Shown: positions 3,910 through 63,828 of the stretch, in pieces
Layout: each line of letters starts with the position of its first letter
How positions within the stretch are numbered: the first letter of the stretch is position 1
Source of the DNA: Balamuthia mandrillaris
Lineage: Eukaryota
Length of the DNA: 63,839 nucleotides
NCBI GenBank assembly: GCA_031835245.2
Contig: JAVKOQ020000084.1
Coordinates: 124,001-187,839 of the forward strand
Reading direction: 5' to 3'
The notes under the pieces: model-generated
Database searches by the model: none
Seen by the model: only the letters and a program-made list of their open reading frames with translations
Told to the model about the DNA's origin: nothing
Made by a program: the position numbers and the translations under genes

Positions 3910-4653
3910 ATGGATCCTTTGGAGTCGTTGAAGGATCCAGGTGGGCTGGTGGCTTGGGCCAGCCACCAATGGTCCCACTTCACGGAACAGTACTACGCCT
4001 TTTTGTGGCTGGGAGTGGGGATCTGCCTCCTGCTGCTCTTTTTGAAGCCACATCTTTCGCAAGCATGGAGAGCGAGGAAGAGACGGCAGGCAAGCCTCGG
4101 TACCGATTGATCCTTCTTTTTCTGTTTGTTTGTTTCTATTCTCGCTCTCTGCTCTGCTCTGCTTCTCTCTTTCTCTTCCTCTCTCTCCTCTCTTCTTTTG
4201 CTTAATGTTGAGCGTTGTTTTTTTTTTTGGCAGCGGCAACTCCAGCGCGGCCTGACTACGATGAGGAGCTTCGTGTAAGGAGGTTGTTGCAACAGCAACA
4301 GGTGGAAGAGGAGGCCAAACGAGTGGCCGAGCGAAAGAAAGAGCAGGAGCGCATCCGTAGACAGCAAAAACTTGGTTTGATTCCCAAGGACAAGCCCCTA
4401 GCTCAAGGTGCCTTTTCAAACCCTTTTTCTCCTTCATCTTTATCTCTTTCCTGCTTTCTCTTTTCGCTTGTCTCTTCCCTCGTTCTCTGCTTCTTCTCTT
4501 TTATTTCTCTTTTCTTCTATGCTTAGTGCAGAGTGGAAGACATTAACACAAACAACAAAATACATAGAACACAATCCGTTAGCACCAACAACGTCGACAT
4601 CGAGGTTCAGACCTTCCTCTTCCTGTGGCAAAGGCAAACGAGGCTGAGGTTAA
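3910..4653 (+). CDS. SELENOS: Selenoprotein S (VIMP)-like; in-frame TGA 4645-4647 read as Sec
   Basis: Exons 3910-4099, 4234-4407, 4532-4653. Single TM helix, charged helix DYDEELRVRRLLQQQQ, C-terminus HNPLAPTTSTSRFRPSSSCGKGKRG-U-G-stop, resembling SelS YNPL...RP...GGUG. SECIS downstream. Confidence 0.88.
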
Positions 4654-4930
4654 GTTGTTGCAGAGAGAGATAAAGAAAGGAGAAACGAGGGATTCTTCTC
4701 CTCTCGTTCTCTTTTTTCAACCCCTACAAAGAAAAAGAATCTTTTTGGTTCTTTTTTTTTTTGTAGTCCTCTCTGCAACTTTTACTCCAAAGAGGATGAG
4801 AAAAGTGTATATCTCACTTTTTTTTTTCTTCCTTTTGTACAAACTCATGATTTGCTTCCTTTCTCTTTCTCTCTTGCTCTTCATCCCAAGGAGGAAGGAA
4901 AAAAAGATAACAGGAGGCAACGACTTTTTA

Positions 4931-19356: not shown

Positions 19357-19492
19357 TTTGTGTTACATGTCGTCATGGTGTGGGTGGGGAACATCATGAC
19401 GACATGTGGGCTCAACAAATAACGAGTTCGAGCTCCTGGTTCGCAAAAACGAGAGAAGGACCGAAGCAACTGGGGTACCATCACCGGCGAAC

Positions 19493-42253: not shown

Positions 42254-43848
42254 ATGACAAGAGCGAGCAACACTGCTTTCCTCGCTGGGGTGATGCTTCT
42301 TTGCATTGTTTCCTCCGCTCTCGCTTTGAACTATGCCGACATCTATGGTACCCATCCTCCCTTCTCTTCCTCCTTTTTAGTTTCTTTTCCTTTCTCTCTC
42401 TTTCGTTACGTTCTTCTTTCTGACATTCGGCATGGGCAGCGCGGTCTCGTGAGTTGCCAGCGGAACGGGAGCTCCTGGACAGCATCTCCTTCTCCATCCA
42501 GAAGAACCCCGGTCAAGCCGTCATGACCCGCAGGACCCTCTCCAACTCCACCTTCACCAGCCGCCACTCCATGAGCCTGTCCTTCAAGGCCTTGGGCCGA
42601 GAATTCTCCGCCTCCCTCCACCACAACAACGATCTCTTCCACCCCAAGGCCGTGGTCTCCGTCTTCTCCGAGGGAGAGTTGGTGGAGACCTATTCCCCTC
42701 AGAGCAGAGCCTACCTGGGAGAGGCCACCATCGATGGCAGGGAGCAGGCCAGCGTCTCCGCCGTGGTGGCCGACTACGACCAAGGCGTCTTCCACATGAG
42801 CATCTGGAACGCCCAGACGGGAGAGAGCTACGTGGTGGAGCCCACCTACCTTCACCCCGAGCTCAGCAAGAAGAGAAGCGAGGGTGGAGGCATGATGGAG
42901 ACCCTCTCCGGAGGCAACATGGTGGTCTTCAAGGAGCACTGGGATGAGCTTCCTTTCGCCCCTCGCAATGTGGACCAAGCCGAGGAGGAAGGCGAGCAAC
43001 CACCGGTCTCCTGCGGCACAGGTGACATCCAGGAGGGAGAGGAGGATGCGGAAGACGTGGTGGACCCGACCAGCAGCTGCCCTCCTCGCAGCGCGAGCTA
43101 CCTGCTCATGGGCGTGGCCACGGACAACCAGTACGTCCGCAAGGCGGGCGGCACCTCCGGCACCCCCAACACCATCTCCTACGTCTGGTCCACCATGCAG
43201 GGCCACTACTACACCGCCGTGCGCAACAAGCCCGTCATCAAGTCCCTGGTCATCAACTCCAGCCCTTCCTCCTCCTCCTCCTCCTCCACCAACTTCAACA
43301 CCGCCAGCTGCCCCTCCGACGTGCAGACCAGGCTCACCCCCTTCTGCAACTGGAGGGTTCGCCAGACCGACCGCACCATCGGTCTCTGGCACTTGCTCTC
43401 CGGATGCCTGCCGGACCGCACGGGAGTGGCGGGACGTGCCTATTACAGCGCCCTCTGCCGGTACACCACCCAGGGGTGCGGCATCACGGGCTACTTGGGA
43501 GGCAACGCCCGCTGGGTCATCCCCGCCCACGAGATCGGGCACAACTACGGCGCCAGGCACAGCAGCAACATCATGGCTCCCTCGGTGAACAGCAGGGCCA
43601 CGGGCTTCGCCCAGACCTCCATCAACGACATGTGCCGCTACACCTTCAGCGTCTCCGCCCGCACCGCCTGCCTCTTGGACCGCTTGCCCGAGGACCAGAG
43701 CCCCACCCTCCCCGACCAGGAGGAGTCTTCCTCCTCCGAGGAGGAGGGCTGCGAGTGCAAGAAGAGGAGCGAGAACGTGGTGGTGGTGCAGGGCTCCGAG
43801 TCCGCCGCCGCCACCCCCAGCAGCGCTCTCCTCGAGGCCTTGTTCTAG
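42254..43848 (+). CDS. Secreted metzincin zinc metalloprotease (M12B/reprolysin-like), copy 2
   Basis: Same structure as copy 1: intron ~42348-42439, HEIGHNYGARH, Met-turn; TATTTAAA at 42125-42132. Confidence 0.9.
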
Positions 43849-61989: not shown

Positions 61990-62355
61990 ACAAACCGAGC
62001 CAATGCAACCAAGCCTTAAACTTGGGGTCGAGCGGGCTGGGAGCATCCGGATCCACCAGCATGACGGTGTACAAAGCAGAGCTTCTTCCTCTCTCGGCTT
62101 CAGCAAGGCGGAGGCGAGGCACCTGCCGCACTTGCTGTGGCTTCAGCTCCGTTCCTGGGCTGAGGGTGAGCTGGCCTTCCTCTCCATCATGAAAGGAAAC
62201 CTGCACAGGAGAAAAACAAACAGCTAGGTTATTTTCAACGTGGTAGTGCGAGGCTGGAAAAAAAGAAAGCCAAAGAACCCTACGCTGAGCAAAGAGCGAG
62301 GGAGCTCGGAGACAAGGTCCGGCACGATGCGGTGGCTCGTTGCTTCTTCTTCCAT
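61432..62355 (-). CDS. Phosphatidylethanolamine-binding protein (PEBP/RKIP family)
   Basis: IVPDLV, YTVMLVDPDAPS, WLHWL, EYVGAAPGKDSG-KHRY; three introns. Confidence 0.92.
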
Positions 62356-62625
62356 ACTGTACCCTAGGGTTTCCTCCTTCTTTGCTGAAACGATATTTTC
62401 AAATTTTTCAACAATAAAATTGTTATAATGAGTGAGTTAGTTGCTTCTCCTTACGAAGAGAACAACAGAATAGCATTTTTTATTGCTTTGTGGAAAAAGA
62501 AAGAAGAGAGAGAGCTCTTAACAAACAGCAAATAGTTTTGGTTGGCGGAGGCCTGCCTTCCAACCAAAAGCCAACCTCACGTTCTGTTTGTTTTTTTTTA
62601 AAAAAAAAAAGGGAATAAAAAGGAA

Positions 62626-62906
62626 TGGCCCTTCCCAGAGTCGAACTGGGACCTCCCATAACAAGCCGCACCCCAACTCTTCTGCACTTGTTTGCTTCGC
62701 TCTCCCGTTTTCACGAAGGAAGAAGCAAGCAATTTGCAAAGAAAGGTCAGCCTTTTGGATCACTACTGTGCGAAACGTGCACGCCCAAACGGGTTGGGCG
62801 CGCGCACCTCCGGGCAACATACGAGTCCAACAATGAGATGAGAGACATATATGATTTGCTCTCATCGATCCAAACGGGTGTGATGCCACGCTTACACCAA
62901 AGGGCC
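62626..62906 (-). ncRNA. Candidate Pol III structured RNA A (281 nt) with tRNA-like 5' and 3' ends
   Basis: 5' GGCCCTT pairs with 3' AAGGGCC-A. D-arm/A-box-like TGGTGTAAGCGTGGCATCAC, T-arm CCCAG-TTCGACT-CTGGG, ~210 nt structured insert, downstream T5 and T11 runs. Confidence 0.65.
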
Positions 62907-63005
62907 TTATAATTAATTTGTAATGTTTGGCGTCCCCCTCCCTTTTGAACAACCGCTTTCCCACCTGCAAAACGAATTATGGGTCTTTCTGTCCTTTTCC
63001 GACGG

Positions 63006-63140
63006 TCTTGTTCTTCTTCGTGTTCTTCTTCTTGTTCTTCTTCTTCTTCTTGTTCTTGTTCTTCTTGTTCTTCTTGTTCTTCTTGTTCTTCTTCTTCTTC
63101 TTCTTCTTGTTCTTCTGCTTCTTGTTCTTCTTCTTCTTCT
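63006..63140. repeat. (TTC/TTG)n microsatellite between the two candidate RNAs
   Basis: Directly visible. Confidence 0.9.
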
Positions 63141-63165
63141 CATCTAATAAAAAAAAGCATTGGTT

Positions 63166-63392
63166 TGGCCCTTCCCAGAGTCGAACTGGGACCTCCCCCC
63201 AAGCCACCACGCCGTTTGCTGGCCCTCTCCTCCTTTGTTCGGGGCGTGTGTGCCGCCGCAACCAAAGAAAGATACTGCCATGCGTGGCGACTCGTTCGAG
63301 TTTGTTTCCCCTCTTCCCCTTCCAGCCCAAGGAAGCTGAAGCGAGGGAGGGCGAGCAAACCCGAAAGAATGGTGCAACCACTTAAGGGGGCC
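63166..63392 (-). ncRNA. Candidate Pol III structured RNA B (227 nt), paralog of A
   Basis: Terminal 32 nt identical to RNA A, 5' GGCCC, long helices, shared CTTTCTTTG and AGCAAAC motifs, downstream T8 run. Confidence 0.6.
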
Positions 63393-63408
63393 TGCTCGGG
63401 AACAAAAA

Positions 63409-63828
63409 ATGAGGCAAACAAGCACCCAGCGTGTTCGTGAGTGGCGAGCAAAAAAGAAAAGAGAACAAGAGGAAAAGCAGCGTCAAAAAGAAGCGCAAGA
63501 TAAACTTCAAAGAAGGCGAGAGCACAACAAGCTGCATCAAAACGACGTCGCCGAGCAGCTTCTTCTGAAGCAAGTTTATGCAACTGCAACCACCCGTGTT
63601 TGAAGAACTTGGATTGGAGGTAACGACCAGTGTCCAGCAACATTTGGACAACTTGGATGAACAGGAGAAGCGAAATCGAAAAAGAAAGCAAAGTTGCCCT
63701 TGAAGGCCTTACTTTGCTTCCTGTTCCGATTTCGCTTAAGGCGTGACGGAGGCGACCTTAGTGTCTTTGACAAGGGAAAAAATTGCTACAAAGGGGTGTT
63801 GTCTGTTCTACCCACTTTAAACAAATGA
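63409..63828 (+). mobile_element. Possible degenerate Harbinger/IS5-like transposase N-terminal relic
   Basis: Frameshifted pieces VFEELGLEV, RKRK/AKLPLKALLCFLFRFRL and GVTEATLVSL resemble the HTH preceding DDE_Tnp_4 domains; stops and frameshifts present. Confidence 0.3.

Follow-up and report, generated by a model that had tools for sequence, protein, structure and literature searches.

The RNA A/RNA B locus of Balamuthia mandrillaris

The window analysed here, the whole stretch of 63,839 bases of B. mandrillaris DNA, contains two neighbouring genes on the minus strand that encode RNA A and RNA B. A purine-rich simple repeat (GAA repeat) separates them. The pair is flanked on one side by a PEBP-family gene, one exon of which has a weak Pfam PBP match (E 0.18), and on the other side by a divergent 64-codon open reading frame (ORF). 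A 5'-nucleotidase gene is also located in the window. One of its exons is 100% identical to a Balamuthia mandrillaris protein, and therefore, the window is amoebozoan nuclear DNA. The two RNA genes comprise the following features:

62626..62906, minus strand: RNA A, 281 nt, a whole tRNA body with a 214-nt insert replacing the anticodon loop; transcribed (ARAGORN with introns; reads)
62907..62925, minus strand: AT-rich stretch directly upstream of A; from its sequence likely the leader and TFIIIB region of A
62900..62906, minus strand: 5' strand of the A acceptor stem, 7 Watson-Crick pairs with 62627-62633
62880..62899, minus strand: U8, G9 and D arm of A (3-bp stem, A14, A15, G18G19); fits the Pol III A-box pattern
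62874..62878, minus strand: 5' strand of the A anticodon stem, 5 pairs with 62655-62659, one of them G-U
62755..62873, minus strand: arm 1 of A, predicted branched hairpin (z -3.6), its middle ambiguous in the ensemble (pair probabilities)
62663..62753, minus strand: arm 2 of A, predicted from the fold as a long rod with CTTTCTTTG, ends GGCTTG (z -3.2)
62626..62657, minus strand: shared 32-mer in A, comprising the end of the anticodon stem, the 4-nt variable loop, the T arm with B box, the 3' strand of the acceptor and the discriminator A
62600..62621, minus strand: oligo-T runs after A (T5 at 62617-62621, T11 at 62600-62610), predicted Pol III terminator
63166..63392, minus strand: RNA B, 227 nt, same plan as A, its 5' half degenerate (called by ARAGORN at 85% threshold only; constrained fold; zero read depth)
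63295..63365, minus strand: arm 1 of B, predicted long hairpin (z -2.9)
63200..63294, minus strand: arm 2 of B, predicted long rod with CTTTCTTTG, ends GGCTTG (z -5.3; 19 kcal/mol better than its reverse complement)
63166..63197, minus strand: shared 32-mer in B, exactly identical to that of A
63149..63156, minus strand: T8 run after B, predicted Pol III terminator

The divergent ORF (63409-63603, plus strand) is rich in lysine, arginine and glutamate and starts 16 nt from the 5' end of B in the opposite direction. No homologue was found among longer proteins and no Pfam family matched. Reads at this position stem from diverged paralogues that are expressed elsewhere. Possibly, the ORF is part of a repeat family.

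An identical 3' end

The 32-mer at 62626-62657 recurs exactly at 63166-63197, as a first-pass annotation had reported, and the identity extends by 0 bases to either side. The same annotation had read its minus strand as T arm with B box, acceptor strand and discriminator, which was borne out. In addition, GGCCC was found at both 5' ends (62906 and 63392), the arm-1 helices lie where they had been placed, and the oligo-T tracts described behind each copy correspond to T5 and T11 behind A and T8 behind B. When both strands of the 63,839 bases were scanned for T arms (5-bp stem, TTCRA loop), only these two were obtained, and blastn detected no third copy of the 32-mer within the window. Outside one large duplicated gene, exact non-low-complexity repeats of at least 25 nt amount to 10 listed runs at four places, the 32-mer pair being one of them. 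A direct-repeat scan of the whole window yielded only simple repeats among the matches listed.

Two short motifs had been named as further shared elements. CTTTCTTTG is present at 62737-62745 and 63263-63271 and belongs to the 5' strand of arm 2 in both A and B, at different heights; it occurs 7 times in the window. As one 9-mer picked post hoc, it provides modest evidence and is only suggestive of a shared element. AGCAAAC had to be dropped: It is paired in A, located in a loop in B and found 18 times in the window, so that its sharing is probably due to chance.

Anatomy of RNA A and RNA B

RNA A contains all parts of a cloverleaf: The acceptor stem has 7 bp and is followed by A73, the D arm contains the A box, the anticodon stem has 5 bp, the variable loop 4 nt, and the T arm is canonical and carries the B box. 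Between the two strands of the anticodon stem lie 214 nt, for which two arms directly adjoining at a three-way junction are predicted. Across the two genes, 165-210 extra bases are found at the codon-reading loop. The original proposal of a tRNA-like 3' end has to be extended for A, where D arm and anticodon stem complete a whole tRNA body and the insert is located exactly in the anticodon loop. ARAGORN with introns makes a single call in the window, which covers exactly 62626-62906 and is classified at the default threshold as tRNA-Pro with a 207-nt intron. Without introns, nothing is called. On shuffled windows, the program with introns made 2 calls in 40, and at 105% threshold the call on A is lost, which counts against reading A as a tRNA scaffold. 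This means, the call is good, but not decisive alone. A 10-nt direct repeat is present inside A (62870-62879 and 62785-62794, minus strand). Its copy at 62785-62794 sets the five bases of the anticodon-stem 5' strand in the tip loop of arm 1, where an alternative pairing would be possible; it may be chance.

In the 5' half of RNA B, two extra C produce a 2-nt bulge in the acceptor, U8 is missing, the D loop is reduced to 4 nt, and the anticodon stem is weak with 4 bp. The A-box pattern matches in A and has no match in B. As expected from the earlier statement that the middles cannot be aligned, MAFFT aligns no inserts of A and B. In an alignment by hand, one anticodon-stem pair and some base pairs of arm 1 are changed on both sides, which in two sequences may be taken as a hint, not as a test.

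RNA A is abundant and has an expressed paralogue

Out of 24 listed runs of public RNA reads, 4 were placed on A and 3 on B. Runs X1-X20 (shares 0.13-0.15) are outside the evidence because the GAA repeat separating the genes was part of the query used to search for runs, and run X24 gave 0 contigs on A. The informative runs X21, X22 and X23 originate from one study with unstranded 150-nt paired random libraries (12.9 million records read each). They contain 107, 222 and 180 reads on 62000-62990, respectively. At 62714-62747 in A, the summed depth was 90, 177 and 142, compared to at most 1.7 per direction for the PEBP gene, and coverage drops at both predicted ends of A. Relative to the neighbouring mRNA, the unspliced form has about 100 times the depth. 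At the boundary between insert and 3' body (bin 62646-62679), the depth was 39, 62 and 50, and neither of the two tabulated joints removes the insert, in a library type that would miss mature tRNA. Therefore, unspliced RNA A is abundant. Both read directions are about equally represented on A; since the libraries are unstranded, strand, exact ends, CCA and polymerase of the transcript lie beyond these reads. No CCA end was seen in the reads on A or B.

The bin 62782-62815, which is specific to A, was covered at a depth of 13, 73 and 68. A second expressed paralogue has the stretch 62715-62756 in common with A and then diverges. The reads that part from A at 62756 number 48, 77 and 58 in the three runs and continue into a single related sequence (agreement 0.98-1.0), which by eye has about 25 of 30 letters in common with arm 1 of A (about 80% over 30 nt). 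Another 43, 54 and 39 reads leave A at the tip of arm 2 (62715), where the tip of the paralogue differs. Consequently, part of the depth on A belongs to this paralogue. As to the copy number of the family, the reads point to few expressed types. At 62801 and 62813, all covering reads of X22 and X23 differ from the window, indicating that the reads come from another strain or haplotype. Partial differences at 62812, 62825 and 62853 are all C-to-U on the RNA strand and commoner in one read direction. A second allele or paralogue is likelier than C-to-U editing, as none of these changes is complete and they are confined to reads with at least three other differences. Two reads of X22 join 62661 back to 62511 via 11 A, which could reflect a template switch, a circle or a tandem copy in the strain.

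Reads on 63136-63600 numbered 28, 13 and 1 in X21, X22 and X23, and the body of B (63200-63391) had zero depth in all three runs. X21 reads on the 32-mer of B run on into A. In X22, a mixed group of 3 reads on this 32-mer (agreement 0.74) continues into unrelated sequence, which is a weak sign of a further family type. Thus, A and B are not the equivalent pair that had been assumed, as B is without an A box and without reads over its body in three libraries. B may be a diverged member lacking the A box that is silent, conditional, hard to copy or absent in the sequenced strain. The broader proposal, a tRNA-like structured family of Pol III type without Rfam match, is supported: A is transcribed, and the reads contain at least one more member.

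Can RNA A be spliced to a decoding tRNA?

The reads could also represent the pre-tRNA or a stable intermediate of a true tRNA gene with an unusually long intron of 207-209 nt and slow splicing. The ARAGORN call favours this explanation, and since 150-nt paired random libraries hardly show mature tRNA, the missing splice joint is weak evidence against it. In the 5-bp register of the anticodon stem, none of eight junctions generates by one splice an anticodon loop with a purine at position 37. In the 4-bp register, two of eight junctions yield U32-U33-UGG-A37. However, this register leaves an A-A mismatch and shortens the variable loop to 3 nt, and A73 is present, whereas eukaryotic tRNA-Pro has C73 (PMC9976931, excerpt). 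Serine identity depends on G73 together with a long variable arm (same excerpt). Eukaryotic tRNA introns comprise 6-133 nt (PMC4090602, excerpt), and introns of about 64 nt are called unusually long in algae (PMC13578239, excerpt); the putative 207-nt intron of A is outside the former range. Furthermore, B is unable to yield a tRNA, and it is the unspliced form of A that exceeds the neighbouring mRNA about 100-fold. A slowly spliced tRNA gene is, therefore, very unlikely. The acceptor stem of A is also present in ordinary tRNAs with CAU, AAU and other anticodons (metagenome loci), so that the parent tRNA cannot be fixed. With intron-containing eukaryotic tRNA genes (37/38 introns, spliced by TSEN), A and B share the cloverleaf body, the insertion in the anticodon loop, the A/B boxes and the oligo-T. 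They differ from them by the 207-nt insert, the absence of a sound loop in the 5-bp register, the abundant unspliced form and, in B, the lack of a usable body.

Folding of the inserts

Folding z-scores of -4.28 (A) and -4.24 (B) were obtained, with 0 of 200 shuffles as good, and the inserts alone scored -3.4 (A) and -6.0 (B). Among 2120 sliding 250-nt windows ranked after correction for composition, the best of B is 4th and the minus strand of A 19th, i.e. folding of both RNAs is strong, but not unique in this genome. The minus strand folds better than the plus strand (A: -115.6 vs. -101.9, B: -110.0 vs. -86.6 kcal/mol) and contains more G-U pairs (19 vs. 5 in A, 13 vs. 1 in B), which would be expected if selection acts at the RNA level, and not from a palindrome in the DNA. 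The strand-specific G-U pairs of the two genomic copies would, thus, indirectly indicate structural selection. Against the scaffold reading, the unconstrained minimum-energy fold of A forms no D, anticodon or T arm, and compared to this fold, the cloverleaf is less stable by 7.2 kcal/mol in A and, likewise against the unconstrained fold, by 9.9 kcal/mol in B. The reads yield no covariation, since the fixed difference at 62801 converts a predicted G-U into U-U and breaks the pair, and the changes of the expressed paralogue fall into the poorly defined part of arm 1.

A SINE consists of tRNA head, body and tail. A functionless or selfish Pol III repeat, either tRNA pseudogenes with hairpin DNA or SINE-like and transcribed since its A/B boxes survive, might account for the decayed 5' half of B and its lack of reads, for inserts that cannot be aligned and for the absence of an orthologue from the collections scanned (see below). 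Likewise, other 250-nt windows fold as strongly as that of A, and B starts next to a short ORF with expressed paralogues, possibly a repeat. In contrast to the SINE plan, both tRNA halves enclose the insert, and the flanks inspected contain no target-site duplication, so that a tRNA-derived SINE structure was rejected. In addition, one dominant paralogue type instead of a cloud is seen in the reads, DNA palindromes should not produce strand-specific G-U pairs, and the identical 32-mer next to unalignable inserts also counts against a repeat. We consider such an element unlikely.

The long imperfect hairpins could also be precursors: The tRNA body would serve as promoter and carrier, and Dicer-like enzymes would cut the arms to miRNA- or siRNA-like products. 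Acanthamoeba has miRNAs with precursors of 75-125 nt (PMC11014262, excerpt), and arm 1 of B has weak matches to miRNA models (23 vs. 79 bits, far under the gathering scores). Weak Rfam matches of this kind are, however, typical of any hairpin, the arms are branched or bulged, and it is the full-length RNA that is abundant. A role as small-RNA carrier is, hence, quite unlikely.

Comparison with known RNA classes

An Rfam scan with the region and with each RNA alone revealed only sub-threshold hairpin matches, in accordance with the earlier view of an undescribed family. tmRNA resembles A in that acceptor and T arm enclose a large insert. By contrast, A is a nuclear eukaryotic gene that has kept the D stem, and tmRNA was rejected based on C3-G70 instead of G3-U70 and no tmRNA call or model match. 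A function loosely like that of tmRNA has also been considered: Elbow and A73 would be charged by an anticodon-independent synthetase, e.g. LeuRS, and the aminoacylated mimic would have translation factors, stress kinases or stalled ribosomes as its targets. This would agree with the perfect 7+5 bp acceptor/T stack and A73, which are identical between otherwise unalignable genes, and with the leucylation of minimal A73 tRNA variants with intact D/T contacts (PMC9976931, excerpt). Yet, the missing G3-U70 and tmRNA call weigh against a charged mimic, too, as do the 2-nt bulge in the B acceptor and the lack of a CCA end among the reads, and the conserved 3' end needs no explanation beyond the constraints of promoter and processing. 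We regard charging as highly improbable.

SRP RNA was rejected, since a helix-8 motif and an Rfam match are lacking and the paralogue has another sequence in place of the GNRA-like tip of arm 2. Box C/D or H/ACA snoRNAs were rejected as well, as no C box was found and the arms abut without a hinge. Searches of A and B for an Sm site and a TTAGGG template motif were negative.

Vault RNAs (metazoan vtRNA; trypanosomatid TBsRNA-10) are similar to A and B in their type-2 boxes, paired ends, variable centre, paralogues and high abundance. To our knowledge, no amoebozoan vault-type RNA has been identified so far. MVP and TEP1 are present in Amoebozoa (PMC3762200, excerpt). In vault RNA genes, the A and B boxes flank a central domain of variable length and sequence (PMC7058938, excerpt), and the trypanosome vtRNA is abundant and found in vaults with TEP1 (PMC12547018, excerpt). 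Paired ends, a variable centre and paralogues were found in the Balamuthia family; both internal boxes are present in A, only the B box in B. The Rfam vault model gave no match at E up to 10. In contrast to vault RNAs, A has retained the D arm, the anticodon stem and a genuine T arm, and the family measures 227-281 nt compared to 84-140 nt, about 190 at most (PMC9326685, excerpt).

YrlA-type bacterial Y RNAs, too, have a tRNA elbow without anticodon loop and another module joined at the position of the anticodon stem. However, YrlA has a closed acceptor loop and ends in the anticodon stem (bioRxiv 10.1101/312249, excerpt), whereas the ends of A and B form the acceptor, which is the opposite topology. 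The Ro60 motifs GNCGAAN0-1G and GGUCCGA (PMC4201824, excerpt) have no exact match in A or B, and no known TROVE-binding motif was detected in either RNA. Membership among vault or Y RNAs is not claimed.

Search for relatives

The full 3' end pattern was found at 0 loci in viral, metagenome and prokaryote genome collections. The T-arm pattern matched 24 viral loci, 22 with and 2 without an acceptor-pairing 5' strand at tRNA distance. The latter two (L019 and L023, 401-420) have the same T arm, no acceptor-pairing strand within 350 nt upstream and no ARAGORN call, and are possibly tRNA-like or split. The acceptor plus oligo-T pattern occurred at 6 viral and 114 metagenome loci. Among 116 metagenome matches, 43 have a 5-bp T stem; they proved to be ordinary tRNAs or 3' remnants of such, and a long folded insert is absent from all of them. 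Ten loci (L045, L079, L088, L092, L097, L103, L115, L124, L127 and L136) are 3' halves of CAU-anticodon tRNAs without the 5' half, the usual trace of integration at that tRNA gene. The junction pattern gave one viral locus, an ordinary tRNA-Gly, and blastn against phages 4 matches of about 30 nt, confined to the T arm. Thus, the viral, metagenome and prokaryote collections scanned, which hold little amoeba DNA and say nothing about Acanthamoeba, contain no orthologue of A or B.

Literature searches, which miss most subscription papers, yielded no account of such RNAs in amoebae in the partial texts seen, nor one of a nuclear, unspliced, multi-paralogue tRNA-bodied RNA. Bacteria and phages are known to have tRNA bodies in which a large domain takes the place of the anticodon arm. 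The Balamuthia genome preprint lists 681 tRNAs and 100 other non-coding RNAs found with tRNAscan-SE and Infernal; its excerpt names nothing like A or B, and its annotation may list A as tRNA (bioRxiv 10.1101/2025.02.25.640156). For a possible link to Dictyostelium D1/Dd8, no relevant paper was found.

A probable natural tRNA scaffold

In engineered tRNA-scaffold constructs, the cargo is placed at the end of the anticodon stem, and the tRNA body provides promoter, processing and stability. On balance, RNA A probably is a natural tRNA scaffold of this kind, whose body would act as promoter, processing signal and stabiliser; the predicted arms and their junction would bind protein, and no codon would be read. 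Different from the engineered constructs, A and B are natural and multi-copy. It is likely that they represent an uncatalogued family of stable, non-decoding tRNA-bodied RNAs. This family is likely made by Pol III and processed like tRNA, and its arms likely bind protein by analogy to vault and Y RNAs.

In such a scaffold, the A box, the B box and the oligo-T seen in the sequence of A would serve as promoter and terminator. The reads contain an abundant RNA that is confined to the A gene and has the insert joined to the 3' body. From tRNA geometry and biology, Pol III would be expected to transcribe the gene, RNase P and RNase Z to trim the ends of the transcript, CCA to be added, and the elbow to confer stability. 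The paralogues keep body, junction and arm bases and change the arm tips, and from what is kept and what is changed, elbow and junction would be the recognised surface. The partner might be a TROVE-domain protein (TEP1 or Ro60), a guess that even within the scaffold reading would more often be wrong than right. That A and B are the vault- or Y-type RNAs of Amoebozoa, or a functional equivalent, with the whole ancestral tRNA body kept and exchangeable two-armed cargoes on one chassis, is doubtful. If true, the origin of TROVE-bound Pol III RNAs from tRNA genes would have a living intermediate in this family.

An abundant 280-nt family that is missed by Rfam and that a tRNA finder mislabels as tRNA-Pro with an intron would constitute a new class of Pol III transcripts. 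Its host is a human pathogen that is usually fatal and belongs to a eukaryotic supergroup that has been little studied. A and B provide a concrete candidate for an amoebozoan vault-type RNA. Calls of tRNAs with long 'introns' and broken anticodon loops are a simple signature for mining other protist genomes.

Other features of the window

A gene with a zinc-metalloprotease motif (HEXXHXXGXXH) is present in two near-identical copies 41 kb apart (1229-2650 and 42424-43848, minus strand), and this pair accounts for 1076 of the 1086 exact-repeat runs of the window. The strongest composition-corrected folding in the window is found at 4560-4920, apparently due to pairing of purine and pyrimidine tracts. 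A hairpin of 17 bp (94% complementary) with a 9-nt loop at 19365-19407 adjoins the start of an ORF.
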